A DNA stretch of 64,000 nucleotides from Terriglobia bacterium (GTDB lineage Bacteria; Acidobacteriota; Terriglobia; 2-12-FULL-54-10): positions 1,689,093 through 1,753,092 of the forward strand of contig OZ240237.1 in assembly GCA_965198025.1 (NCBI GenBank), given 5' to 3'. The translations under genes and the position numbers were made by a program. Positions 5,950-63,865 of this stretch are shown here, in pieces (position 1 is the first letter of the stretch; each line of letters opens with the position of its first letter). The notes under the pieces were generated by a model that saw only the letters and a program-made list of their open reading frames with translations, had not been told where the DNA came from and ran no database searches.

Positions 5950-5976
5950 AAAAACGCCGTTTCCGGCGTTTTTCGG
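5950..5976. terminator. bidirectional intrinsic terminator hairpin (A-tract, acgccg-tttc-cggcgt stem-loop, T-tract) immediately after the recG stop
   Basis: aaaaacgccgtttccggcgttttt begins right after the recG TAG; a perfect 6-bp GC-rich stem flanked by A and T runs. Confidence 0.6.
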
Positions 5977-6296
5977 TTCCTGCGGTAGATTCGGTTCTTG
6001 CGGTTCCTTCCGTTCCTTCGGAATACCAAATTCACTATAAAAACACTAAAAAAAGGGGCGTTTCGGGCCTTGCGGACGGTGCCTGGGTGGGGCCGGCGGC
6101 AAAGGGAACCAGCCCGGCACGCTGTGGCATAAAAATCACCCCCGGGACTTGGATAGCGGACCCGCGATTCGGGACTCGAAGAACAGACCCACGGCACAAC
6201 AAGCGTGCCGTGGCTACAGGACTCGAAGAATCAGTGCAGGCCGGAGGCCTGGCACTACTTGCGGGCTATACAGCAACGCTGAAAATGGTCTAGAAC
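5950..6296 (+). repeat. composite dispersed intergenic element, copy A: terminator hairpin + ggttcc-rich direct repeats + A/T-rich core + GC-rich tail ending gggctatacagcaacgctgaaaatgg
   Basis: About 190 nt are nearly identical to the reverse complement of 63420-63630 and the end motifs also match; a partial copy of the ggttc(c/t)ttcgg repeats occurs at 30470-30545. Confidence 0.6.
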
Positions 6297-9200
6297 GAGA
6301 GCCGCAGCGCAAACTGAATCTGGCGGGCTGTTCCAACGGTAGTGGAGAGCCGGCCGGCGCTCGAACTTCGACGGCCGGAGTTTCCCGAAAACACCACCAC
6401 GGTGTTTCCCTCATTCCGGTCAAAATTCGGGTGGTTCAGCAGATTAAAGAATTCCGCCCGGAACTGCAGCCGTTTTTGCCCATCAATCGAGAACTCCTTC
6501 TGCGCGGAAATGTCCGCGTTGAAGACGAACGGCGAGATGATGGTATTGCGCCCCACATTCCCCAGCGTTCCCGGTGGCGGAAGCGAGAAGGCGCAGGGAT
6601 CGAAGTATAGTTGCGGAGTTCCCAGCTCCTGGCCCGCCGCCACGCCCAGGCAGCCTTCCGTGACCCCTTCGGTCGGGTTCAGACTTTGCCCGGGGATCAG
6701 ATTGGGGCGAGTAGGCTCGAACAGGTATCCCGGGGTTCGGACGTTCACTTCCACCGTGGACGGCACACCAGTCCGGTAGGAGATGATTCCGCCCAGCCGC
6801 CAGCCCCCAAACACCGCCGAAAGAAACCCCGAGTTGAACCAGCGCTGCCCCGTGCCCAGCGGCGGACTCCAAAAGTAGTTCATGGCGATCCGGTGCCGGA
6901 TGTCGAAATTCGACAGGCCCCGGTCCAGCGTGCGCCTCCACCCAAACTGCGCAAGCCCGCTGCCCGGAGCGTTGGAATCATCATCCACCGACTTGCTGAA
7001 CGTATAGCGGAACTGTGCCGACATTCCCGACATCGGCCGCAGGTTGGCGGAAAGCTGCAGGGAGTTATAGAAGGATTGCGCGTCTGAGGCCAGCATCGAA
7101 ATCGCTCCGAACGCCGGATTCACAGGTCCCGCGCCCGGCCGGCAATTCGGCGAGGGCTGCTCACTCTTGCCACAGTCATCCGGGAAGAACAACGACCCGT
7201 CCGGCAGCGTGATCGGATAGGGAAACTGGTTCGTCTCATACCGGCGCAGCAGATGGTTCCCGCGCGCTCCTACGTACGACGCCTGCAAGCTCAAACCGCC
7301 AGCCAGTTCCTGTTGGACCGAGAAATTGTAGCGCATCACCGTCGGCGTCTTCAGGTCCTCGTAATCCACAATGTGAACGTGAGGTGGAAGCCCTCCGATA
7401 GTTGCCGTGGTGCCGACGATCGCATTGGGAAAAGTTTCTCGGGCGTCGAAATTCGGGTTCACCGCTACTTTGTTGAACGGGGCTGTGTTCTTCCTCCCGA
7501 CACCGATGTATCCCAACATCTGATCGTAATAGATCCCAAAGCCGCCCGCCAGCACCGTACTCTGTCCTGCGAACGGCGTCCAACGCCAGCCGATACGCGG
7601 CGCAAAATTGAAGCGCGACGGGTTGTCCCGCACAATCCGGTCTACCAGCACTTCCGTATCGCGCAACGTATCCGAAAGAGACGTCTGCTTCCCATGGATC
7701 TCATCGAGAACGCTTACGTACTCATAGCGCAGTCCCAGATTCAGATGGAACCGCTGGCTGACACGATACTGGTCTTCCAGATAGAGCGCGAACAGAGTCT
7801 GGCGGAAGTTCCGGTTATTGTCCCCGCCGGGCAAGGCCACCTCGACGCTCGTCCCCTGCGGTCCCCCCAGCAGAAAGTTCTCAAAACTGTTGAACCGCCA
7901 CTGCCCGGCTGACATGAAGAAATTTCCGACATCCCAACGGTAGCGATGCGCCTGCAACCCCATCCGCCAAAGGTGCGCTCCGCTCTGGATCACCGCGTCG
8001 GAGGCCGCCTGAAACGTGTTGGTCACCTTTCGATCCGGCAGTGCCGGGAATGTGCCCATGGGAGTTAAGGAGGGAATCTGAATCTGCCCAAACGCGACGG
8101 CGTTGGGAGTGAAGTACAACTCGGGCGGGATGTCCAGCAGCGTGAACTCCTCGTCCCTGGTGACGGGTCGGGTGTACCCCAGACGGACGACGATCAGCCG
8201 CCGCAGGTCGAAGATATGAGACCCGACAAGCGTTGCATAATGCTGGCGGCTTTCCGTCCTGCGCTGCCACAGATAATTATTGTCCGGCCGGTGCCCGGTT
8301 GCGTCGTCGAACGTATAGCGCGCAAAGAAGCTGTCCTGATCCGACAGCTTGTGATCCACGCGCGCCGTGAAGAAACTCTCGTCCGTGGGCAGAAAATCCG
8401 ATGCACGGTTCTCAGCGATCCCGCCTCCTCGGCAGGCCGAATTCGGCAGCGGATACAGCGCCAGATACGGCTGGATTTTAGGGTGCACCTCCAGCGACTG
8501 GATCACCTCGCCGTTGCAATCGGTCAGGATTCCCTGCCGGGAAAGGGCGTCCGGGAAGAAATTGACCTTCGTTTCGGTCAGCCGGTCTCGCAGCGCTTCA
8601 AAGCTCGCCATGAAAAACGTTTGATCTTTCCAGATCGGACCCGTGACCGTCGCCCCGAACTGGTTTCGCTTGAACGGAGTCGGCTCCGGCCCGGGATCGA
8701 AAAAGTTCCGTGCGTCCAGCTTGCTGTTGCGGAAGTACTCGAACAACGTTCCATGGAACTGTGGCGTTCCGGAGCGCGTGATCGAATCCAGCACCCCGCC
8801 GCTGCCGCGCCCATGTTCTGGTCCGAAGGACGTCAGCACTTGTACTTCCAGCACGGCGTCGGACCCTAATTGCACGCCTGCAGCGCTTCGGGGAACTTGA
8901 TTCCGCGCGTCCATGATGTTGGTTCCGTCGAGCAGAAAGTTATTGGAAGTAGAGCGTCCGCCCACCACCGTCAGGCTGCCGCTCCCTCCTCCCCGCGATG
9001 CCGAACCACCCGAGGGGTCTGACACGCCGGCCTGCAGCGTCGCGAGCTGGTTGTAGCTGCGCCCATTGAGCGGAAGTCCCGAAAGCTGAATTTCACTGAT
9101 CTGCTCAGCAGGGGAGGAAGTAGACGGAGGTTGGTCCGCAGTCCGTTCGATACTTGGCTCTTCGCCGGCGGCGCGGGGGCCTTCCGTCACGGTGGGAGCC

Positions 9201-9307
9201 GCCGGATCCTGTGCGTTCGATGAGCTGGATGAGTTCTGGCTCCACGTTCGGCCTGGACCGCACAGCACGAGGGCCAGCAAAACAGGCAAAGAAACTTTCC
9301 GAATCAC
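6290..9307 (-). CDS. TonB-dependent receptor-like outer membrane protein (plug + large beta-barrel, Acidobacteria type)
   Basis: Signal peptide; plug motif LSGLPLNGRSYNQLATLQAGV; 1005 aa; C-terminal barrel closure ...QIQFALRLSF; paralogous to the next gene. Confidence 0.85.
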   Translation of the reverse strand: MIRKVSLPVLLALVLCGPGRTWSQNSSSSSNAQDPAAPTVTEGPRAAGEEPSIERTADQPPSTSSPAEQISEIQLSGLPLNGRSYNQLATLQAGVSDPSGGSASRGGGSGSLTVVGGRSTSNNFLLDGTNIMDARNQVPRSAAGVQLGSDAVLEVQVLTSFGPEHGRGSGGVLDSITRSGTPQFHGTLFEYFRNSKLDARNFFDPGPEPTPFKRNQFGATVTGPIWKDQTFFMASFEALRDRLTETKVNFFPDALSRQGILTDCNGEVIQSLEVHPKIQPYLALYPLPNSACRGGGIAENRASDFLPTDESFFTARVDHKLSDQDSFFARYTFDDATGHRPDNNYLWQRRTESRQHYATLVGSHIFDLRRLIVVRLGYTRPVTRDEEFTLLDIPPELYFTPNAVAFGQIQIPSLTPMGTFPALPDRKVTNTFQAASDAVIQSGAHLWRMGLQAHRYRWDVGNFFMSAGQWRFNSFENFLLGGPQGTSVEVALPGGDNNRNFRQTLFALYLEDQYRVSQRFHLNLGLRYEYVSVLDEIHGKQTSLSDTLRDTEVLVDRIVRDNPSRFNFAPRIGWRWTPFAGQSTVLAGGFGIYYDQMLGYIGVGRKNTAPFNKVAVNPNFDARETFPNAIVGTTATIGGLPPHVHIVDYEDLKTPTVMRYNFSVQQELAGGLSLQASYVGARGNHLLRRYETNQFPYPITLPDGSLFFPDDCGKSEQPSPNCRPGAGPVNPAFGAISMLASDAQSFYNSLQLSANLRPMSGMSAQFRYTFSKSVDDDSNAPGSGLAQFGWRRTLDRGLSNFDIRHRIAMNYFWSPPLGTGQRWFNSGFLSAVFGGWRLGGIISYRTGVPSTVEVNVRTPGYLFEPTRPNLIPGQSLNPTEGVTEGCLGVAAGQELGTPQLYFDPCAFSLPPPGTLGNVGRNTIISPFVFNADISAQKEFSIDGQKRLQFRAEFFNLLNHPNFDRNEGNTVVVFSGNSGRRSSSAGRLSTTVGTARQIQFALRLSF

Positions 9308-30544: not shown

Positions 30545-32008
30545 TCACCCAGTTTTGGTGGAAAAAGGGGCCCCGTAGCGGCTCATAAACTCCTCCGCGC
30601 TGCGCAGGGCTTCCTCATAGCCATAATTCCGAAACGCGTAGCCCTTAGCGACAAACGGAGCACCCGCGTAGAACATCTCATACTGGAGATGGCGGCCCGC
30701 GAACTCGGAGCCGACAATGTCCCATGCCAATTTGAAGAGCTTGACCCTTTCTTCCGAAGACGTATTGGGAGAGCGCAGATAGCGGTCCATGTCCGATTTG
30801 GTCAGGTCGCTGGTGAGATCGCGCCAGGACGCAGGAAGCTGGATGACACCTCCGCCGGCCAGTTCACGCAGCAGGAGGGTGGCTCGCGGATAGAGCTCGG
30901 CCTGGAGTCCCATCGCCCCATAGAGGAAGCGTGGGTTGGGTTTTGCTACGCCGTGGGCATCGAGTGAAAACGTGGACTCCGAAGCCAGGACCATTCCTTC
31001 GACCATACCGGCGAGCGAAGCGAGGTCGCCGAGCTTTTCCTGTACAGCGGGAATTTTTTCGATGCCGGTCACTTGCGTGATACGCCGGGCAACACCCAGC
31101 AGGAACTTCATTTTGACGGTCAGGCGAATCTGCGCCTGGGCGTTTCCGAGAACATGCGCTGCGGTCTCGAAGAATTGCCGGCGGACTTGCTGTACGTCGC
31201 GAAAAACAAATACGTTTTCCCAGGGGATCCACACATGATCGAAGACGATCAGGGCGTCGGTTTCATCAAAACGAGTCGAGAGCGGATAGTCGAAGCTGCT
31301 CGGCTGGTCGGAGGCGTAGGGCCGGCGGCAATAGACCTTGAGACCCGGCGTGCTCAACGGAACGACAAAGGAGACGGCGTATTGCTCGTCCTGGGGCGTG
31401 AGCGGCTTGATGCAACTGACGAAAAGCCAATCGGAAACAGCCGTGGCCGTGCCGAGCATCTGCGAACCGCACACGACCATGCCGCTTTCCTGTTCCTCCA
31501 GGACGCCGACCTGGAGCAGTTCTTCTCCCCAGCCGTGCGCCGTGACGCTGCGGTCGATCTGCGGTGGGATAATGACGTAGGTGACGAACAGGTCTTCTTC
31601 CACCACCTTGCGATAGAAGCGCGACACGTTTTGAGCGAATGGCCGGCCGGCTTGGTCGAAGATTTCCGGGGCACTGGCGAAACCTGCCAGAAAGCTTCCG
31701 ACGTGGTCCGGGCTGCGGCCTACGAAACCTTTTGAGACTTCCGCCCAGGTAGTAATGGCTCGGCGGCGTTCCTGCAGGTCGTCGAGCGACCGAGGGATCA
31801 TGAAGACCTTGTTCGCCGGCTTGCCGGTTTCCGGAGAGGTGCAGATCATTCCCTTCTCCGGATTGGCAGCCACGTCGTACAAGGTTGCGACTGTATCCGC
31901 AATGCCCTGGAAGGCCGGATGGCGGGAAACATCCAGCACGCGGGCGCCGTCGAGAATAACGGTCCTGTCATCTGCCAGCGATTGCAAGTACTCGGAACCG
32001 GTCCTCAT
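30545..32008 (-). CDS. 4-hydroxyphenylacetate 3-monooxygenase oxygenase-component (HpaB) / 4-hydroxybutyryl-CoA dehydratase family protein
   Basis: 488 aa from ATG 32008 (MRTGSEYLQSL...); the HpaB-family N-terminus and acyl-CoA-dehydrogenase-like fold blocks; the ATG overlaps the TGA of the upstream gene (ATGA). Confidence 0.8.
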   Translation of the reverse strand: MRTGSEYLQSLADDRTVILDGARVLDVSRHPAFQGIADTVATLYDVAANPEKGMICTSPETGKPANKVFMIPRSLDDLQERRRAITTWAEVSKGFVGRSPDHVGSFLAGFASAPEIFDQAGRPFAQNVSRFYRKVVEEDLFVTYVIIPPQIDRSVTAHGWGEELLQVGVLEEQESGMVVCGSQMLGTATAVSDWLFVSCIKPLTPQDEQYAVSFVVPLSTPGLKVYCRRPYASDQPSSFDYPLSTRFDETDALIVFDHVWIPWENVFVFRDVQQVRRQFFETAAHVLGNAQAQIRLTVKMKFLLGVARRITQVTGIEKIPAVQEKLGDLASLAGMVEGMVLASESTFSLDAHGVAKPNPRFLYGAMGLQAELYPRATLLLRELAGGGVIQLPASWRDLTSDLTKSDMDRYLRSPNTSSEERVKLFKLAWDIVGSEFAGRHLQYEMFYAGAPFVAKGYAFRNYGYEEALRSAEEFMSRYGAPFSTKTG

Positions 32009-32712
32009 AGACGCACCTCCACGCCAGAAAGCTGCTGCGGTTCGGCTGGACGGCGCATGCGGCACTCATACGAGAGCTTGCCGAAGCCGGGGACTTCCAG
32101 CTCACAGGCAAAGTAATCCGTGAAAGCAAATTTCCCGGACTGCAACGGAAGGGTTCCCATCAACAGGACTGTTCCCGCAAGGCCGGACGACAAATGCAAG
32201 CTTGTCAGGAGGTTCTGTGGGGCTAGCAACTGGCCGAGCTTACCGCATTGATAGAGCTCGCGGTCCGGTCCGGGCGCGGCCCAACTGCGCATCGTAATCT
32301 CGTCCCATACAGCGGCTATGTCATTGTACCGCCATACGTTCTTGCTCAGCGGCTTGGGCAGCTCCTTGGAACGAGCAATCGAGCGGCGCTCCTGTTCGCG
32401 ATCCGTAAAGTCCACGATCACTGACACCAGCGCGTCGTCCAGGCTGTCGCCGCGGAACAGAAGTGCCGGCTCGACTTCGCCCGAGATGGGGGCAACCGGA
32501 AACTGCAGATCCGTCTCTGTGGTGACCCACTCGGAAGCGAGGGGAAACAATGCCGGGACGCAGTCGGGAGGAGCAATGCCCTGCCGCTCCAGTTCCGCGA
32601 TGTGGGCGCGCATCTGCTCCCTATCGCGTCCGGTGTATCCGGCCACCAGAATCCGCCGGACGGAGAACTCGACCGGTGAATCATCCAGTTCGAGGATCAG
32701 CTGTTTTGCCAC
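32005..32712 (-). CDS. hypothetical protein, translationally coupled to the HpaB-like gene
   Basis: 235 aa with no recognisable catalytic motif; its stop overlaps the downstream start; possibly a conserved DUF that pairs with HpaB-like enzymes. Confidence 0.5.
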   Translation of the reverse strand: MAKQLILELDDSPVEFSVRRILVAGYTGRDREQMRAHIAELERQGIAPPDCVPALFPLASEWVTTETDLQFPVAPISGEVEPALLFRGDSLDDALVSVIVDFTDREQERRSIARSKELPKPLSKNVWRYNDIAAVWDEITMRSWAAPGPDRELYQCGKLGQLLAPQNLLTSLHLSSGLAGTVLLMGTLPLQSGKFAFTDYFACELEVPGFGKLSYECRMRRPAEPQQLSGVEVRL

Positions 32713-32789
32713 TGGGAAAGGCTACACCGAATCGGTAAAACTCCGCAACGCAGACGCAACGGCATTCTACTACGGCGGCTCAGGGGAGG

Positions 32790-33015
32790 CAGGAATGCCT
32801 GCCCCTACTTTAGGACAGGCGAAGAGCAGATCCCTCGTCACTGCGTTCCTCGGGATGACACGGCAAAGGAGAGTGGATAGGGAGATGGAACACAGGCCCT
32901 GGCGGGCTGTGCTCGAAGGGGACAGGCCAGAGGCCTGTCGCTACTTAGGACAGGCAAGAATGTTGGTCGCTGCCTGGTCGACAGGCCGGAGGCCTGTCGC
33001 TACTTGGCAGGCAGG
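32790..33015 (+). repeat. cluster of REP/MITE-like palindromic repeats (ggcaggaatgcctgcc hairpins; gacaggcc-nga-ggcctgtc-gctactt hairpins; a ~60-nt unit shared with 35737-35795)
   Basis: ggcaggaatgcctgcccctactt occurs at both ends of the region; gacaggccagaggcctgtcgctactt and gacaggccggaggcctgtcgctactt occur inside; gatgacacggcaaaggagagtggat.gggagatgga.cacaggccctggcgggctgtgctc is duplicated at 35737. Confidence 0.6.
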
Positions 33016-33034
33016 AATGCCTGCCCCCACTTGA

Positions 33035-34513
33035 CTACTCCCAGCCGTACTCCGGCCAGCGGCGGTCGACAAGTTCTTCATCTTCCGGAGCGGGTTGGAC
33101 GGTGGGGGGGAAACGCCCGCCCCATTCGGGCTTGGGATCGTACATCCAAGTGCGGGTGGCGTCGATCAAAACGCGGTTCCAGATGCCGGAGCCGAGCTTG
33201 CCCACGTCGCGTTCCTCCAGGGGCGAGGAAGGGTCGGCCGGGGAGCCGAACGAGCCGGGGAACACGACAAGATCGTCCTTGCCGGCGTTGACTCGGTACG
33301 CAATAGCCCAGTCGAGGGCTTCATAGTTGCTGATGTCAATGTCATCGTCGGTGACGATGACGTGCTTGTACCGCCAGCTGGCAGCGCCTGAGCCCCACAG
33401 AGCGGCGGCCACCTGCTTGGCATGTCCCTGGTAGCGTTTATTGATGGCAACACAAATATTGGTGCCGTTGGTCACCGGATGAACATGCACATTGGCGATG
33501 CCGGGAATGCCCTGCTGTTCGAGGATGTTCCACGCGATGGCCGCCCGCTGGATGGACGACATCATGCTATTTTCGGTGTAAGACCCGGGGAGGGTACCCT
33601 CCTGGGTGCCGCGCAGAATGGGATTGTTACGGTACGTGATGCACTCGACCCGGATGACCGGACGCGGCGTAGGAACGTCACCGGTGTGGCCGGTGTATTC
33701 GCCGAACGGACCTTCCGGCTCAAAGGTTTTGGGGTCCGGATCAATTACACCCTCGATGACAATTTCGGCGGCGGCGGGGACCAACAGATCACTGGTTTCG
33801 CAGCGCACTACGGAAAGCGGCTCGCCGCGGTAGCCGCCCATCACGTCGTATTCGCAGACGCCCGCCGGAACCGGGCTGCCGCTCAGGAAATCCATGATGG
33901 GATCGTAGCCGATTACGGCGGCAACGGGCATCGGCTGCTTTCTCTGGCGGTACTTGGTGAAGGTCTGGCCGCCGTGCTGGCTGGCGACAATCAGAACCGG
34001 GATGGTGCTGCGGCGTCCGATCATGCCGCGGTAGGTGCCGATGTTCTGGACGCCGGTGTCGGGGTCGCGCGTGACGATACCCGCGAAGGTAAGCAGGTAG
34101 CGGCCGCCGTCGCGGAAGTGCCATTTGGGCGCCGGGAACTGAGCAAGGTCCACCGCCTCCCCGCGCACGATGTTTTCCTTGACCGGACCCGTTTTCACTT
34201 CGGCTGGCGGGATCGCCTCGCGATTCTTTCCGCGGACGTACTGCACCAGATCGCGCGTAGGCACGTCCGGCGGCAGGCCCAGAACCATGGCCAGCCGGGA
34301 CCGCTTGTGCAGCAGGGCCGCAGCGAGCCTCCGGCAGGCAGTGTTGCGATGGTCCTGGATGTTCTCAAAGAGCAGCGCCGGGCCTTTGGAGGTGAACGAG
34401 CGCCGGGCAATCGCGCCAATTTCGCGGTCCCAGTTCACGACTGCGTTGATGCGCTTCAATTCCCCGGCCGCTTCAAAGCGGTCGAGCCAAGTTCTCAGAT
34501 CAGCGAATCCCAT
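33035..34513 (-). CDS. UbiD-family (prenylated-FMN dependent) aromatic acid decarboxylase
   Basis: 492 aa; UbiD N-terminal block MGFADLRTWLDRFEAAGELKRI...; conserved family regions along its length; no ubiX adjacent. Confidence 0.9.
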   Translation of the reverse strand: MGFADLRTWLDRFEAAGELKRINAVVNWDREIGAIARRSFTSKGPALLFENIQDHRNTACRRLAAALLHKRSRLAMVLGLPPDVPTRDLVQYVRGKNREAIPPAEVKTGPVKENIVRGEAVDLAQFPAPKWHFRDGGRYLLTFAGIVTRDPDTGVQNIGTYRGMIGRRSTIPVLIVASQHGGQTFTKYRQRKQPMPVAAVIGYDPIMDFLSGSPVPAGVCEYDVMGGYRGEPLSVVRCETSDLLVPAAAEIVIEGVIDPDPKTFEPEGPFGEYTGHTGDVPTPRPVIRVECITYRNNPILRGTQEGTLPGSYTENSMMSSIQRAAIAWNILEQQGIPGIANVHVHPVTNGTNICVAINKRYQGHAKQVAAALWGSGAASWRYKHVIVTDDDIDISNYEALDWAIAYRVNAGKDDLVVFPGSFGSPADPSSPLEERDVGKLGSGIWNRVLIDATRTWMYDPKPEWGGRFPPTVQPAPEDEELVDRRWPEYGWE

Positions 34514-34699
34514 CAGGTACTCCCGTGCCGTGCGAAACTCCGATTATAGACAAGAACGGACACGGAGACACGGTGATACTGAAATTCGGTAGTGTCTTAA
34601 TTTGGAGGGGAGGGCGATGGCTACTGAAAATCCGCCATGTTGACAATCTAATTGGAAGAACCGGATACTAACGGTACGGTGGGAAAGAGGGGGGGCGAG

Positions 34700-34978
34700 A
34701 TGTCACTGGCTGATCCCAGGGAAATCGCTAGAATTGCTGAGGAAATTTACAGGCAGAAATATAAAGAGCATTTCGAGAAAGCTCACTCTGGCAAGTTCGT
34801 TGTAATTGACATCCGAAGCAAAGAAGCTCATATAGGAGATTTCGCCGAGGAAGCGTTCGAGATAGCCAGAAAGAAAGCCCCCCATGGCGTATTCCACCTA
34901 ATTCGCATTGGCGCTCCAGGCGCATTCAGGGTGGGCTATGCCGGACAACAAGAAGACATCTGGGATTGGACACTTTGA
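34700..34978 (+). CDS. small hypothetical protein (~92 aa) of the kind found paired with retropepsin-like proteases (DUF5678-like; tentative)
   Basis: Strong RBS GAGGGGGGG before ATG 34700; protein MSLADPREIARIAEEIYRQKYKEHFEKAHSGKFVVIDIRSKEAHIGDF...; its 3' end overlaps the next ORF. Confidence 0.45.
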   Translation: MSLADPREIARIAEEIYRQKYKEHFEKAHSGKFVVIDIRSKEAHIGDFAEEAFEIARKKAPHGVFHLIRIGAPGAFRVGYAGQQEDIWDWTL

Positions 34979-35360
34979 CCAGCAGGGTAATGCTTGTTTG
35001 AAACTCCATATATGCGGGGTAAGGCATGATCCGCCAGGTCCAGAGTACGAAGCGATAATCGACACGGGATTCACTGGATTTATTCAACTCCCGTTGGCAG
35101 AAGCGTTGTCGCTTTCTCTTCCTTTGGAGGGAACCAACTCGGTGACATTGGCTGATGGAAAAAGCTTGGTCATGCTCACCGCGCTGGCTTGGGTGACTCT
35201 GATGGAAAGAACAGAAGCCGGAGTGGTTTTGTTGTCGATGTCCTCCAATGACATTCTTGTTGGAATGGATTTCTTGAGGCGATTTGAGAGATCATTGGTG
35301 GTTTCCAGACAATTAGGGGTTGTCCTGGTAGAAGAAAACGCGTGGCAGAAAAAGCCTTAA
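34938..35360 (+). CDS. retropepsin-like (clan AA) aspartic protease domain protein; start uncertain (34908 or 34938)
   Basis: Active-site motif IIDTGFTGFIQLP and a downstream LVGMDFLRRF flap/dimer region typical of bacterial retropepsin-like proteins. Confidence 0.65.
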   Translation: MPDNKKTSGIGHFDQQGNACLKLHICGVRHDPPGPEYEAIIDTGFTGFIQLPLAEALSLSLPLEGTNSVTLADGKSLVMLTALAWVTLMERTEAGVVLLSMSSNDILVGMDFLRRFERSLVVSRQLGVVLVEENAWQKKP

Positions 35361-35611
35361 TGCCCTGGAACCAGCCGGGACACCTCCCACACCTGCCTTA
35401 GCTGTCAAACGATTTTCCCATGAGGGCCTCTAGCGCCCTTCCAATCCCCTCGACGATACTCTTGTCCTCATCCTTCCAAGGATACCCGCCACGGGAAGAA
35501 ATCGATAGAGTGCTTAGCGGGATTCGCAGATGCCGGAACCTGCAGAACCCATCATGGAATCGCTCGACGATTTGGGCCTGCGGCCCTAAAGCCAAATCAG
35601 GACACTACCGG

Positions 35612-35830
35612 TTGGTGTCTTAATTTCAAAAGAGAAGAGCAGATCCCTCGTCGCCCCTCACCAACGGCTCGGCGAAACGACATCAATATGTCCGAAACGA
35701 CATCAATATGTCGTTTCGTGTCCTCGGGATGACACGGCAAAGGAGAGTGGATCGGGAGATGGAGCACAGGCCCTGGCGGGCTGTGCTCTATGGAGACAGG
35801 TCGGAGGCCTGTCGCTACTTTGCGGCTGCG
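35612..35830 (+). repeat. MITE/structured-element copy related to 32805-32950, plus a local direct repeat and perfect palindrome (gaaacgacatcaatatgtc x2)
   Basis: Shares gagcagatccctcgtc, gatgacacggcaaaggagagtggatcgggagatggagcacaggccctggcgggctgtgctc and gacaggtcggaggcctgtcgctactt with the 32.8 kb cluster. Confidence 0.55.
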
Positions 35831-35972
35831 CTACACCAAACCCTGAAAATGGTCTAGAATTCAGGCTGAGGAATTATCGAAGGCAACTGACAATACGAGA
35901 TACGCTATCGAAGGGACTTGCCATGTCGGGCCTCTGTAGCTACTATAGGGCTACATATTGGGAGGCGTCCAG

Positions 35973-36230
35973 ATGAGTTCCGATACGGTCGTTCGCGCTC
36001 GGATCGATAGCGACACTAAAGCACGGGCTACGGAAGCGCTTCAAGCCATGGGCCTGTCGGTATCCGATGCCATCCGTCTGCTGTTGCTGCGAGTGGCGAA
36101 TGAGAAACGGCTGCCATTCGCCGTCCGGGTGCCGAATGTCGCTACGGTCAAGGCAATGGAGGAACTGGGCGAGGGCAAGGGCAAACGCTTCGGCAACTCC
36201 GAGGAACTGTTCCGGGATCTCGGCGTCTGA
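35973..36230 (+). CDS. dinJ: type II antitoxin, DinJ/RelB family
   Basis: MSSDTVVRARIDSDTKARATEALQAMGLSVSDAIRLLLLRVANEKRLPF matches the RHH DinJ antitoxin fold; 2 nt upstream of the yafQ-like gene. Confidence 0.8.
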   Translation: MSSDTVVRARIDSDTKARATEALQAMGLSVSDAIRLLLLRVANEKRLPFAVRVPNVATVKAMEELGEGKGKRFGNSEELFRDLGV

Positions 36231-36232
36231 CA

Positions 36233-36499
36233 ATGCTGACCCCGGTTCGATCCACGCAGTTCAAACGCGACGTAAGAAGAGCCCAGAAGCGCGGCAAAGA
36301 TCTGATCAAGCTGCGGGTGTTGCTGGCGTCGTTGATCCAGCAGGAGCCGTTATCCGCCCGCTATCTCGATCATCCACTCAGGGGATTTGGGAAGGGCTAT
36401 CGGGAGGCCCATCTCGAGCCGAACTGGCTTTTGATTTACCGCACCGAAGGAGATGAATTGCATCTGGTCCGTACCGGCTGCCCATTCCGATCTCTTTAA
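36233..36499 (+). CDS. yafQ: type II toxin YafQ (RelE/ParE superfamily mRNA interferase)
   Basis: FKRDVRRAQKRGKDLIKLRVLLASLIQQEPLSARYLDHPLRGFGKGYREAHLEPNWLLIYR...LVRTGCPFRS is closely similar to YafQ proteins. Confidence 0.85.
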   Translation: MLTPVRSTQFKRDVRRAQKRGKDLIKLRVLLASLIQQEPLSARYLDHPLRGFGKGYREAHLEPNWLLIYRTEGDELHLVRTGCPFRSL

Positions 36500-36801
36500 G
36501 GAGTAAATCAGGAAGAGAGCTCTATTTATTTCGGCCTTATCTTTGAGAGCTTGCGACAGGCGCTACGACAGGAAGAGCACAGGCCAGTACGACAGGCCGG
36601 AGGTCTGTCGCTACCTGGGACCAGCGGGATGCTGGCGCTACGCTCTTCGGGATGACATGCTTTTGGTGGTGTCCTAATTTTTGCAAAATCAAGACACCGC
36701 CAAAATGGAAGATGCGGTGAAACAACCCTGTCGTTATAATAGAATAGTTACCAGACCGCCTTGGCGCTGCATTACGAAGCGACTTCCGGGAGGGCGAACC
36801 G

Positions 36802-38262
36802 ATGACACGAAGACAAGTTGGGATGGATTCCAAGGAAATTTTTTCCGCAGCCTTGGCCGGGATCATTGTGCTGAGCGCCGCCGTATTGTGGATGCGCTCC
36901 GTCCCGCTGCGCGAGTTACAAGCCAGCGCGGAGCGGGCAGGCCGGCAGCCGACGGGCACTGCGCAACTGGTCGCCGTGCAGACGATCCCGGGATGGGCGG
37001 AGGGCGAGATGTGCGAGTGGGTTCCGGCGAGCGCGGGATCGAACTTGCTGTCGTTGCTGCCGGAACCGCAGTCACAGGACGTGCCCACACGGAGCGGACC
37101 GGCACCGACACCAACCCCCGAGGAATTCGCAGAAGTCAACGCGCGTTCCCCGTTGCGCATGGTCAAGGACCACTATCCCTCCTACAGTTCGGTGGCGGTC
37201 GATTTGAAGAACAACGAAGTGATCATGACCGACGAGAGCACCTTCTCGATCCTGACCTATGACCGCATGACGAACACGCCGGCGAGCGCTGCGTTCAGCG
37301 AGCCGAAGCGGCGCATCGGCGGGCACCAGACCTGGATCGAGTATCAATGCGGCGTCTACGTGGATCAGGCCTCGGGGGACATCTATGCGGTAAACAACGA
37401 CACCGTGGACCGTCTGGTAGTCTTCTCTCGGGAGGCGCGGGGGGACGTGCCACCCGATCGCATCCTGCATACGCCGCACACGACCTACGGGATTGCGGTG
37501 GACGAGCCGCACCAGGAACTCTTTATGACGGTGCAGGAGGCGGCCGCGGTCAGCGTGTTTCGGAAGTTCGCCGCGGAGCACGAAGAACCGATCCGCCTGC
37601 TGCAGGGAGAGCGAACGCTGCTGGCGGACCCGCACGGGATTGCGGTGGACTCAACACGCGACCTGCTGTTCGTATCCAATTTCGGTTCCGTCTCCAGGAA
37701 AGACCCGACCCAGATCCGAGAAGACGCCACCGGATACTACGAGGGGACGGACAAGGCCAACTGGCCGCTGTCGCGGAACGCCGCCATCCCGGGGAGCGGC
37801 AAGTTCCTGCCTGCTTCGATTACCGTCTACCCGCGCGACGCCGAGGGTGACGTGGCCCCGATGCGCAAGATCGAAGGCTCCCGAACACAGTTGAACTGGC
37901 CGACGGCGCTGGTGGTGGATCCGGAGCGGGGAGACCTGTTCGTGGCCAACGATACCGGAGACTCCATCCTTGTGTTTGACGTCATGGCAAGCGGCAATGT
38001 GGCTCCCAAGCGCGTCATCAAAGGCCCACAGAGCATGATCAAGAGTCCCACGGGCGTCTTCTACGACTGGGAGCACGATGAGCTCTGGGTGGCGAATTTC
38101 GGGAATCACACGGCCACCGTCTATCCTGCCACGGCGTCGGGCGACGTGGCGCCTCTGCGCGTGGTTCGCAGCGCTCCGCGTAACACAGGCACGCCCAATA
38201 TCGGCAATGCCTATGCTCCGGCGTATGACTCGCGGCGTGATCAGATCATGGTGCCCAACTGA
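36802..38262 (+). CDS. membrane-anchored YVTN-like beta-propeller repeat protein, N-terminal part; ends at an in-frame TGA in the middle of a blade (probably one gene with 38263-39069)
   Basis: GGGAGGG RBS; N-terminal TM helix; repeated ~48-aa blades of the form GDVAP.R.I.G..T.L..P.G...D....EL.VAN......VF; the ORF stops at TGA 38260-38262 right after a ...MVPN turn. Confidence 0.7.
   Translation: MTRRQVGMDSKEIFSAALAGIIVLSAAVLWMRSVPLRELQASAERAGRQPTGTAQLVAVQTIPGWAEGEMCEWVPASAGSNLLSLLPEPQSQDVPTRSGPAPTPTPEEFAEVNARSPLRMVKDHYPSYSSVAVDLKNNEVIMTDESTFSILTYDRMTNTPASAAFSEPKRRIGGHQTWIEYQCGVYVDQASGDIYAVNNDTVDRLVVFSREARGDVPPDRILHTPHTTYGIAVDEPHQELFMTVQEAAAVSVFRKFAAEHEEPIRLLQGERTLLADPHGIAVDSTRDLLFVSNFGSVSRKDPTQIREDATGYYEGTDKANWPLSRNAAIPGSGKFLPASITVYPRDAEGDVAPMRKIEGSRTQLNWPTALVVDPERGDLFVANDTGDSILVFDVMASGNVAPKRVIKGPQSMIKSPTGVFYDWEHDELWVANFGNHTATVYPATASGDVAPLRVVRSAPRNTGTPNIGNAYAPAYDSRRDQIMVPN
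38260..38262 (+). other. in-frame UGA inside a beta-propeller blade: candidate selenocysteine codon or programmed readthrough site
   Basis: TGA is followed directly by GTG in the same frame; the identical arrangement (aac tga gtg ... cac ccg cag att gc) is seen in the paralog at 59111-59113. Confidence 0.4.
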
Positions 38263-43089: not shown

Positions 43090-43530
43090 ACGGACGCCGG
43101 CGCGGGTGAGGGAACGCGGAGCGATGCGCAAGAGTTCTTTGCAGGGAAGTCTCCAAGTCGCTACGCTAGCGTGGTGCGCGTGCTGCAAAGCATTCCACGG
43201 GATCGGGGTAGGCCGAAGCGGCTGTTCTGTGACAACGGATCGGAGTTCTCCAGTCAAGTGCTGGACCTGTGGGCCTATCAGAACGGGGTGAAGATCGATT
43301 TTTCTAGGCCCGGCAAACCGACCGACAACGGGCACATCGAATCGTTCAATGGGACGTCCCGGGAAGAATGCCTGAACACCCATTGGTTCACAACACTGGG
43401 AGAAGCCAGGCAGATCATCGAAGCTTGGCGGAGGGAGTACAATGAGAGTCGACCTCACCGGGCCCTGGGGGAGCAGATCGCAGCTAGCTGCGATCTGAAA
43501 GGCCTGCAAAACCCGCAAGACTCACCCTGA
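43090..43530 (+). pseudogene. IS3-family transposase remnant (C-terminal part of a DDE/rve integrase core only)
   Basis: Translation ...YASVVRVLQSIPRDRGRPKRLFCDNGSEFSS...FSRPGKPTDNGHIESFNGTSREECLN...ESRPHRALG matches the rve-core second half of IS3/IS407-like OrfB; no N-terminal half, OrfA or inverted repeats were seen. Confidence 0.7.
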
Positions 43531-45592: not shown

Positions 45593-45832
45593 AGAAGTAC
45601 CTCCTGGGTTCTATTACCGATCCTGAAGGCCACATTGCGGGGCAGGCGGGTATCCTCAGCCTTGTGGACGACACCCATGCTGCCTGTGTCGAGATGGCCC
45701 AAAACTTCATATTGGTTCAGCCACGTGCCTGGAGAAAGAGCCACAGCGTACCCCCGCCGGTGCAATCCTGTGGGCTGCTATGAATCGGTGCGCACCTAGC
45801 TTATCGGAAGGCCACGGTGCGGGGCAAGCGGT

Positions 45833-54464: not shown

Positions 54465-54997
54465 CCAAATCTCCTCCCGGTTCCTCGCGGCACTAGTCTG
54501 GCCTGTGACCCAGGACATGTTTGCTGAATTGCTGGATCCGGAATTTCCAGCAAGGCCTTCCGGCTGCCCCTAATGATACACCCATCAGCCTGCGGTGGAG
54601 CACATTTTGATGCCTGGAAATTGGTATGGAAGCGCGGCGACTATATAGCCAAGAATCAGTACCACCAAGCGGTTTGGGAGGTGACTCCCAGCACCAGAAT
54701 GGTTTCTCTACCCTCTGAAGAGTGTTTCTGGAGACTCAGTCGTAGATCCTTGCCCTGCGGTGGAGGCTTTCGATAAGCTAGGTCTGAACTAAGCAGACTT
54801 CAGGTTCCACCGGCGGGGGCGTAAGACTGTGGCTCTTTCTCCAAGCACGTGGCTGAACCACCATTCCCTAAATCTCTCCCATCGATTCGGAAGGGATAGG
54901 CGGAAGTGCGATGTGCCTGCGACACGCGGCGAAGCAAGAGTAATTCAGGCAGGAATTGCTTCTAATTCACTATCCAAGACTGTGAGCGGAGAAACCT

Positions 54998-56089: not shown

Positions 56090-56445
56090 TCGCCATAACC
56101 AAGTCCTCTGCGAATGTTGCGAAACCCCTTGCCCTGCGGCATGGCCTGCCGATAAGCTAGAACGTGAAATGATTCATGGCAGCCTGCAGGTCGTCCGCTG
56201 GCGGGAGGCAAGTCTGTGGCTTTTTCTCCAGGTACGTGGCTGAACGATTGCGAACTCCTCGCTCCCATCGGCTCCGGGGGCAGGGGCGAAGTGATGCTGC
56301 GCGACCGGATCAAGCGTGGACCGGTTCCCATGGAGGAAGCCCTCCACATCGCCGGTTCCGACGGAGGCCCGATGATCCGCCGTTTGTGAAGAGAAACTCA
56401 GAACTGTATCCCAAGCTGTACGATCGCGGAGGGAGGAATCTTGGA

Positions 56446-62838: not shown

Positions 62839-63288
62839 ATGATGAACAGAAGTCCTGCAGTGCTCATCCTGGCTCTATTGTTCGTTAGCGGAGCCTCCGC
62901 TCAGAAGCTGGAGTTTGCGAATCCGGAAGGGATATCTACTCCGGAGCGATACTCACACGTCGTGAAGGCGGGAAACATCATTTTTGTTTCCGGGCAGGTC
63001 GGCCGCGATTCCAACGGACAGATCGTGGGAGAGGGTATGCGGGAGCAATTCGACCAGACCTTGAAGAACGTGATCACGGCAATCCAATCCCAGGGAGCCG
63101 ATGTTGGCCATATCGCCAAGATTACGACCTACGTGACCGACATGGACGAGTATCAGAGCCCGGAAGTCCGGGCCATTCGCACCCGGCACTTTGGAAATCA
63201 CAAACCTGCGAGCACATCCGTCGAAGTTGTGGGGTTGGCGAATCCGGCCTACAAAGTGGAGGTCGAAGCCATCGCCATTCTGCCTTAG
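62839..63288 (+). CDS. RidA/YjgF/L-PSP family protein with signal peptide
   Basis: VKAGNIIFVSGQVGRD...ITTYVTDMDEY...VEVEAIA is the RidA family pattern; N-terminal signal MMNRSPAVLILALLFVSGASA. Confidence 0.85.
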   Translation: MMNRSPAVLILALLFVSGASAQKLEFANPEGISTPERYSHVVKAGNIIFVSGQVGRDSNGQIVGEGMREQFDQTLKNVITAIQSQGADVGHIAKITTYVTDMDEYQSPEVRAIRTRHFGNHKPASTSVEVVGLANPAYKVEVEAIAILP

Positions 63289-63289
63289 A

Positions 63290-63632
63290 TCATTTTCAGC
63301 ATTGCTGTATAGCCCCCAAGTAACGACAGGCCTCAAGTAGGGACAGGCCTCTGGCCTGTCCCCTTCGAGCACAGCCGACAGGCCGCCAGGTCTGTACTCG
63401 CAAGCCCAGGTGTTGCGGGTCCGCAATCCAAGTCCCGGAGGTGGTTTTTAGGCCACAGCGTGCCGGACTGGTTCCCTTTGCCGCCGGCCCCACCCATGCA
63501 TCCCCCGCAAGGCCCGAAAACACCCCTTTTTTAGTGTTTTTATAGTGAATTTGGTATTCCGAAGGAACGGAAGGAACCGCAAGAACCGAATCTGCCGCAG
63601 GAACCGAAAAACGCCGGAAACGGCGTTTTTTC
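63290..63632 (-). repeat. composite dispersed intergenic element, copy B (inverted relative to 5950-6296), including the terminator hairpin aaaaacgccggaaacggcgttttt
   Basis: The reverse complement is nearly identical to 5950-6140 and shares the end motif gggctatacagcaa.gctgaaaatg; its middle contains gacaggccagaggcctgtcc-ctactt hairpins of the REP-like family. Confidence 0.6.
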
Positions 63633-63865
63633 TATACCAACCCTGAAAATGGGGTAGCCCGCGCTGAACGTCTGCTCTCAGCAAGCCTGCATCAACTTCA
63701 TCTCTTCCTCACCATCGAAACATGAGTAGTCGGCGTTCGATGCGGCCGTTCAACGAATGATCGGCTCGTAGCAGGATTCGTATGTGTTCTGGGGGAATGG
63801 ATGGTGTGCCCCGCGAAAGCCCTCTGATGAGGACCTTCGCGGGGGGTGATTGCAAATTACGCTGA

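Follow-up and report, generated by a model that had tools for sequence, protein, structure and literature searches.

GTAG-tagged hairpins in an uncultured member of the Acidobacteriota have the features of repetitive extragenic palindromes

What are the short hairpins with a common CTACTT tail that lie between genes in the genome of this uncultured, soil-type member of the Acidobacteriota, and how might they have come to be there? The window, that is, the whole 64-kb stretch of DNA analyzed here, holds eight copies at five intergenic loci (Table 1), each a unit of 23–26 nt that consists of a G+C-rich stem of 8–9 bp, a loop of 3–4 nt, and CTACTT. All eight hairpins listed in a preliminary description of this DNA exist, and they were placed correctly except for two positions (32795 and 32918) that were a few bases off. 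The same description spoke of perfect stems with a shared CTACTT tail, which has to be relaxed: one tail reads CCACTT and one CTACCT, two copies carry a G.T mismatch, and the copy at 6235 retains only a 6-bp perfect core. Both orientations do occur, as had been claimed, with seven of only eight copies (four of the five loci) sharing one strand and the copy at 63335–63360 lying on the other. Counting half, partial, and collapsed copies as remnants, the total in the 64 kb plus 6 kb that were read is eight copies and four remnants, at five loci over 57 kb. REPs (repetitive extragenic palindromes) usually number more than 100 copies per genome.

Table 1. Hairpin copies, their remnants, and the repeat modules beside them in the window
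Feature	Position	Strand	Canonical orientation (tag first)	Plus strand	Remarks
REP copy 1, degenerate	6235–6260	−	AAGTAG-TGCCAGGCC-TCC-GGCCTGCA	tail CTACTT	6-bp perfect core CAGGCC/GGCCTG, bulged extension; DNA fold −9.2 kcal/mol, z −3.4
REP a, stem type 2	32788–32810	−	tag GTAG	GGCAGGAATGCCTGCC-CCTACTT	GGCAGG-aatg-CCTGCC or AGGCA/TGCCT register
REP b, type 1	32921–32946	−	AAGTAG-C-GACAGGCC-TCT-GGCCTGTC	GACAGGCC-AGA-GGCCTGTC-G-CTACTT	perfect 8 bp
REP c, type 1	32980–33005	−	AAGTAG-CGACAGGCC-TCC-GGCCTGTCG	GACAGGCC-GGA-GGCCTGTC-G-CTACTT	perfect 9-bp stem; DNA fold −10.9 kcal/mol, z −5.5
REP d, type 2	33006/33010–33032	−	AAGTGG-G-GGCAGGCA-TTCC-TGCCTGCC	GGCAGGCA-GGAA-TGCCTGCC-C-CCACTT	tag GTGG; perfect 8 bp; tail variant CCACTT (33006–33032)
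REP copy	35795–35820	−			single G.T stem mismatch (plus strand)
REP copy	36591–36616	−		tail CTACCT	single G.T stem mismatch (plus strand)
REP copy, opposite orientation	63335–63360	+	AAGTAG-GGACAGGCC-TCT-GGCCTGTCC		perfect 9–10 bp; DNA fold −12.3 kcal/mol, z −5.0
Partial REP	63318–63334	+	AAGTAAC-GACAGGCC-TC		tag and 5′ arm only; head-to-tail with full copy at 63335
5′ half-sites	32812–32820, 32947–32955				AGGACAGGC
Collapsed arm-plus-tag	36555–36566				GACAGGCGCTAC
Mosaic module 5′ of REP b	32821–32920				GAAGAGCAGATCCCTCGTC ... CCTCGGGATGACACGGCAAAGGAGAG ... CACAGGCCctggcGGGCTGTG
Mosaic module, second copy	35634–35794				directly 5′ (plus strand) of REP at 35795
Accessory box beside REP	6261–6295				GCGGGCTATACAGCAACGCTGAAAATGGTCTAGAA; recurs at 35821–35859 and 63286–63317

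The recurrence of these hairpins exceeds what chance would yield. In the window, the type 1 pattern, with up to three mismatches, matched six times against 0.00 expected from 100 shuffles, and the stem type 2 pattern matched twice, again against 0.00 expected by chance. A scan of the window for any hairpin followed by C[TC]AC[TC]T returned exactly these eight copies and no others. Folded as single-stranded DNA, the better six copies reach −7.4 to −12.3 kcal/mol, with z of −2.9 to −5.5; the two copies with a G.T mismatch fold more weakly (z about −2). No Rfam 15 covariance model matched the window, at its whole length, at the gathering score, and none did so at E <= 1.

To which class of repeat do the hairpins belong? 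The tail reads AAGTAG or AAGTGG on the opposite strand, so that an unpaired GT[AG]G comes before every hairpin. In each of the eight copies, this tag (GTAG in seven, GTGG in one) lies 0–1 nt from the stem, on its 5′ side, and it stays free of pairing in the folds. The consensus reads 5′-(A)AGT[A/G]G-[C/G]-GACAGGCC-TC[C/T]-GGCCTGTC-3′, with a second sub-type, GGCAGGCA-TTCC-TGCCTGCC, that carries the same tag. Two positions of the stem distinguish the two types, each change being compensated in the opposite arm, and the closing pair across related REPs is C-G, A-T, T-A, or G-C, complementary in every case. In an alignment of related REPs, 97% of the cells were paired, and the observed covariation score was matched by no shuffle, the aligned sequences having been gathered with a hairpin filter.

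REPs of the GTAG type are defined by an unpaired terminal GTAG, with stems of 6–13 bp, loops mostly of 2–3 nt, and GTGG variants (PMC3733652). The 23-nt REP of Stenotrophomonas maltophilia, the “group 3” model, consists of GTAG, a perfect palindrome of 8 bp, and a 3-nt loop; the RAYT (or TnpA-REP) enzyme of this species binds the folded single strand and cuts at CT, and the GTAG tag is required for cleavage (PMC8266576). The hairpins of the window share the marks of this super-family, namely a short palindromic stem-loop, an unpaired tag, and an extragenic position near 3′ ends. The preliminary description had read them as REPs, and its own evidence goes further than it said, because CTACTT is the reverse complement of AAGTAG and thus contains the defining GTAG (GTGG in one copy). 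We conclude that the hairpins are very probably REPs of the GTAG super-family, in the short perfect-palindrome format of group 3, and that they were presumably spread by a cognate RAYT.

How are the copies placed relative to genes? Pfam matches and the gene calls in sister assemblies served to identify the neighboring genes. The coding share of the window is about 88% by a greedy ORF cover, and all eight copies lie outside called or Pfam-supported genes, which bears out the earlier statement that they are intergenic. The REP loci lie between convergent or same-strand genes, and at four of them the nearest upstream stop codon is 2, 29, 46, or 92 nt away. The cluster of four (32788–33032) is set between two minus-strand genes: 2 nt separate REP d from the stop of a UbiD-family gene (33035–34513, minus), and REP a lies 75 nt upstream of the start (32712) of a DUF2848 gene on the same strand. 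The 6235 copy is located between the convergent recG and TonB-dependent receptor (6290–9307, minus) genes, 29 nt past the stop of the latter; the 63335 copy, also between convergent genes, follows the stop of a RidA/L-PSP gene (62839–63288, plus) by 46 nt. The 36591 copy lies 92 nt past the stop of yafQ (36499), and the 35795 copy lies upstream of relB (35973). GTAG REPs likewise favor intergenic gaps between convergent or same-strand genes, near 3′ ends (PMC3733652). Read along the transcript of the nearest gene upstream, six of what are only eight copies have the tag on the 5′ side and two have it on the 3′ side. Both degenerate copies have their G.T mismatch on the transcribed strand, so that it would be a G.U pair in RNA.

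Two further features of these gaps deserve mention. A spurious ORF on the plus strand (32318–33034) spans the REP cluster. In addition, a relB/yafQ toxin–antitoxin pair (35973–36499) sits between two REP-bearing mosaics (35600–36690 of the window). On either side of the pair, near 35607 and near 36671, stands the short direct repeat ggtgtc[t/c]taattt, which suggests insertion or recombination at the repeats.

Are the hairpins solitary, or do they belong to larger units? They form the conserved end of longer mosaic repeats. The two copies of the module 5′ of REPs are 93% identical over 100 bp, and the copy at 35634–35794 has a 68-nt palindromic insertion in its first loop. Beside REPs at three loci lies the GCGGGCTATACAGCAACGCTGAAAATGGTCTAGAA box, whose end is the TAG stop of the convergent gene. 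Adjacent REPs are all head-to-tail, both the four at 32788–33032 and the partial and full pair at 63318–63360, and the window has no inverted REP doublet. Head-to-tail is a rare type of REP dimer (PMC3733652). Adjacent REPs that alternate in orientation at regular spacing, as in BIMEs and REPINs, were thus not found. The label “BIME-type” in the preliminary description therefore fits insofar as the REPs are embedded in mosaic repeats but not for the cluster, which is head-to-tail rather than alternating.

Several other repeats accompany this family or lie apart from it. A box CATTTTCAG(S)(R)TTG(S)TGTATAG occurs four times (6266–6287, minus; 63291–63312, plus; 63630–63651, minus; and about 35829–35851, minus), in two cases directly after a TAG stop (those of the TonB-dependent receptor and RidA genes). 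In a composite at 63.3–63.65 kb, this CATTTTCAG..TATAG box stands at both ends, inverted, like terminal inverted repeats. An intergenic composite of ~345 bp is present as two inverted copies 57 kb apart (5950–6295, plus; 63286–63630, minus), which share a 216-bp core at 93.5% identity. The composite begins with a bidirectional terminator-like hairpin, AAAAACGCCGgaaaCGGCGTTTTT, contains an A/T-rich box, ttcactataaaaacactaaaaaaagggg, and has a REP near its other end; it has no Rfam match and may represent a MITE-like element or a small RNA gene that has escaped annotation. The three copies of another repeat family, GGTTCAGCCACGTGCCTGGAGAAAGAGCCACAG (45713–45762, plus; 54808–54860, minus; 56214–56245, minus; 88–94% identity), are unrelated to the REPs, and their position relative to genes is inconsistent. 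Finally, an isolated 90-aa rve_3 integrase-core fragment at 43258–43530 is an IS remnant that contains a perfect 24-nt palindrome (43474–43497); a look-up of its protein led to the same locus in sister assemblies only.

How stable is the family among close relatives? Two long-read metagenome contigs in ENA, of 1.34 and 2.93 Mb, match the window at 99.2–99.9% identity, and a Logan contig matches it at 100%. The RecG protein of the window has an identical counterpart on a 3.76-Mb contig. By RecG, the nearest named relatives are Acidobacteria bacterium RIFCSPLOWO2_02_FULL_61_28 (74%), Terriglobia (67%), and Bryobacteraceae (55%). Among three strains of 99.2–99.9% identity, we found no polymorphism in REP presence or absence. 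Their differences at REPs amount to one SNP in REP a (32799C>T), which, unlike the G.T mismatches, would not give a G.U pair in RNA, and two SNPs just outside the 35795 copy, which is itself kept in strain L058. With no gain or loss of REPs among the three strains, there is no sign of recent mobility. The syntenic 22-kb loci of two relatives (RecG 83% and 74% identical) contain no REP copy, which fits the usual species-specificity of REPs, and the 6.2 kb upstream of the window start also has none. Near one of the mosaics lies a strain-variable cassette (34552–35573, against 1120–2308 in L058): in the sister assembly ERZ25072076, an unrelated segment of 1.19 kb takes the place of the lower-GC one, which includes an aspartyl-protease-like ORF, and one boundary of the cassette and the REP mosaic at 35634 are about 60 nt apart.

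Is there a transposase to which the hairpins could be tied? Neither the 64-kb window nor the 6 kb beyond its start has a gene for a RAYT or another Y1 transposase, and a tblastn search of the window with E. coli, Stenotrophomonas, acidobacterial TIRYT, and new RAYT proteins found nothing below E = 0.1. Among the best 120 of 3,944 matches to a RAYT profile, none lay on a contig of a length known for this organism (3,763,783, 2,929,911, or 1,341,140 bp). The exact motif has only two single matches in 185,579 species genomes, one in a gammaproteobacterial MAG and one in an Omnitrophota MAG. It also occurs on 45 metagenome contigs of 32–73% G+C, and at 7 of these 45 loci the hairpin lies next to or within a Y1_Tnp ORF. 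On one such contig, L015, two GTAGG-GCAGGCC hairpins come before the RAYT gene, and GTAGG-GACAGGCC-gct-GGCCTGTCC and an inverted copy come after it. The family of this RAYT has thousands of members, many of them called RayT by JGI, and resembles the Stenotrophomonas group 3 RAYT more closely than it does the E. coli RAYT.

Starting from the proteins instead, we inspected four family members on long contigs (L051, L054, L056, and L057). L051, from a member of the Vicinamibacterales (Acidobacteriota), has three copies of GTGG-CACGGGCG-TCC-CGCCCGTG on each side of the RAYT gene, inverted between the sides, and in L056 this layout recurs with the stem GGGCGGGC. In L054 (Binataceae), one AGTGG-GACAGGC-GTCCCT-GCCTGTC lies on each side of the RAYT gene, again inverted. 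L057 carries at least 14 copies of GT[AG]G-GACAGGC[A/T]-TC[C/T]-[T/A]GCCTGTC around its RAYT gene, partly in alternating arrays with a period of 112 nt; this REP differs from that of the window only in the closing base pair and the 1-nt spacer, and the TCC/TCT loop is common to both. The L054 and L057 proteins score above the cut-off of NCBIfam NF047646 (“REP-associated tyrosine transposase”), and the proteins beside near-identical hairpins reach 83–86 bits with the RAYT model vs. 27–30 bits with the IS200 model. The sequences thus give indirect support to a link between the window hairpins and a RAYT, because RAYT genes that pass NF047646 are flanked elsewhere by almost the same hairpin.

The RAYT loci hold observations of their own. 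On low-GC metagenome contigs, the RAYT ORF itself contains the same REP hairpin, in frame and directly behind the HUH motif (L029 3009–3503, L038 271–867, L017 2–490, and L020 985–1497), where the hairpin encodes peptides such as GQALGLSL, GTGQRPVPT, and GTGHCPV; some RAYTs are known to carry REP insertions (PMC6006769). In L054 (5800–7005), the RAYT gene and its two REPs (about 1.1 kb) are flanked by a 60-bp direct duplication of the 3′ end of a DAHP synthase gene, and in the sister contig L055 a reverse transcriptase gene of the group II intron type lies just downstream of the RAYT gene. The called RAYT ORF of L057 (3001–3200; P0273) runs 5′ through the upstream REPs, yielding the peptides DRLEARPT and GTGILPV, and this 5′ extension is a gene-calling artefact caused by REPs.

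How might such a family have arisen? A cognate RAYT (TnpA-REP, an HUH/Y1 enzyme) may have seeded the hairpins and spread them in this genome. It would bind the folded single-stranded hairpin, read the GTAG tag, and cut at a nearby CT, and copies would then spread by single-strand cleavage and joining. The gene for this enzyme would be expected as a single copy elsewhere in the genome, or it may have been lost. Once in place, copies would be transcribed within 3′ UTRs or intercistronic RNA, where their stem-loops could slow 3′ exonucleases or pause or terminate transcription. The stem-loops of REPs in Proteobacteria are known to have such effects on exonucleases and transcription.

Could the hairpins be something else? 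One alternative is that they are ordinary terminators or mRNA 3′ stabilizers that arose locally and resemble each other through functional constraint, with no link to a transposase. Most copies do lie just past stop codons, and the REP cluster folds well as RNA (−118.8 kcal/mol, z −4.6). However, a T/U run follows none of the copies on either strand, a terminator and promoter scan of 32000–37000 called no REP, and a conserved unpaired tag of 6 nt on one side only is not a feature of terminators; two copies, moreover, are upstream of genes, half and collapsed copies exist, and the same sequence flanks RAYT genes elsewhere. On this evidence, we regard local terminators or stabilizers as improbable. 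Intrinsic (Rho-independent) terminators in particular were considered and rejected, the tails being CTACTT or, on the other strand, non-T.

There is similarly little probability that the hairpins derive, as remnants or in miniature form, from an IS200/IS605-type insertion sequence and were mobilized by a classical TnpA rather than by a domesticated RAYT. The Y1 transposases of IS200/IS605 also use subterminal hairpins, the window has no RAYT, and the inverted CATTTTCAG..TATAG boxes bound the composite copy near 63286–63651, yet the hairpin-adjacent proteins score far better with the RAYT than with the IS200 model, the GTAG tag and short perfect stem are REP features, and neither tnpB nor IS ends were seen. 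Operators for a dimeric DNA-binding regulator of the adjacent genes would account for perfect 8-bp inverted repeats with a fixed spacer of 3 bp and for the two copies upstream of genes (DUF2848 and relB). They would be hard to reconcile with four tandem copies immediately after a stop codon, copies between convergent genes, two stems that differ by compensatory changes and share an asymmetric tag, functionally unrelated neighboring genes, and syntenic DNA of close relatives that lacks any copy, and this explanation is very improbable indeed.

What does this family add? The window hairpins add one more example to a well-known kind of element rather than founding a kind of their own, and they reveal no new mechanism. 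To our knowledge, nearly all work on REPs and RAYT enzymes has dealt with Proteobacteria. With a GTAG-type REP family in an uncultured member of the Acidobacteriota, the system would extend to a major soil phylum, and the link to a RAYT clade also found in Binataceae and Vicinamibacterales supports this extension. On the practical side, REPs can serve as markers of gene-caller and assembly errors, as with the spurious ORFs across the cluster and the RAYT ORFs extended through REPs, and they are candidate 3′ UTR structures for work on gene expression.

The core itself raises a broader question. GT[AG]G followed by GACAGGC(N), often with a TCC/TCT loop, occurs in this member of the Acidobacteriota, in the Binataceae MAG, in Omnitrophota-like contigs (32–47% G+C), and in several high-GC contigs, and the RAYTs beside this core are only 17–29% identical to each other. 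The recurrence could reflect transfer, an old recognition code, or convergence. That different phyla share one REP core because RAYT–REP pairs move between them, or because an old recognition code has been frozen, seems to us unlikely, if worth keeping in mind. In the current picture, domesticated RAYTs are inherited vertically, and REPs are species-specific and fast-evolving; a shared core that did not arise by convergence would speak against it.

How do these elements compare with known systems? The preliminary description held that such repeats are not characterized for this lineage, which is fair for an uncultured host: in a survey that found tagged REPs in eight phyla, only TIR-flanked Y1 transposases were reported for Acidobacteria (PMC3733652), and a 2025 tool paper counted palindromic elements in three acidobacterial genomes and did not describe families. 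Those TIRYT/TIRtron systems of Koribacter, Terriglobus, Acidobacterium, and Granulicella are from the same phylum and consist of Y1 relatives with flanking repeats. Some of their TIRs have a GGGGWSAS motif, which GGGGACAG fits in two window copies, a resemblance by motif alone. Their flanks, by contrast, are long TIRs described as unrelated to GTAG REPs (PMC3733652), and the window has no TIRYT genes. As in the BIMEs of E. coli and the REPINs of Pseudomonas fluorescens, REPs and short conserved motifs combine in the window into mosaics that recur at several loci, but adjacent copies are in direct orientation, whereas BIMEs and REPINs have alternating or inverted REPs.

REPtrons are RAYT/TnpA-REP genes flanked by their own REPs (Nunvar et al. 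2010, PMC2817692; Ton-Hoang and co-workers), and the RAYT genes of L057, L054, L015, L051, and L056, flanked by inverted sets of GT[AG]G-tagged hairpins, have this layout, with a window-like GACAGGC(N) stem in L057, L054, and L015. The window differs in having dispersed REPs only, and the REPtron loci come from other organisms (one from Binataceae, one from Vicinamibacterales). From the GTAG-tagged REPs surveyed by Di Nocera, De Gregorio, and Rocco 2013 (PMC3733652) and the group 3 REPs of S. maltophilia (SMAG) and Pseudomonas (Corneloup et al. 2021, PMC8266576), the window family is set apart by its stem, GACAGGCC, by a 1-nt spacer between tag and stem, and by a head-to-tail cluster where theirs are head-to-head or tail-to-tail; its host, moreover, belongs to a phylum without GTAG REPs in the 2013 survey. 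It shares with GTAG and group 3 REPs an unpaired GT[AG]G at one end, a perfect G+C-rich stem of 8–9 bp, a loop of 3 nt, and a unit of ~23–25 nt. As with GTAG REPs in general, it also has sub-families with compensatory stem changes, remnant and clustered copies, and an intergenic position near 3′ ends, between convergent or same-strand genes, with the TAG of the tag close to stop codons.
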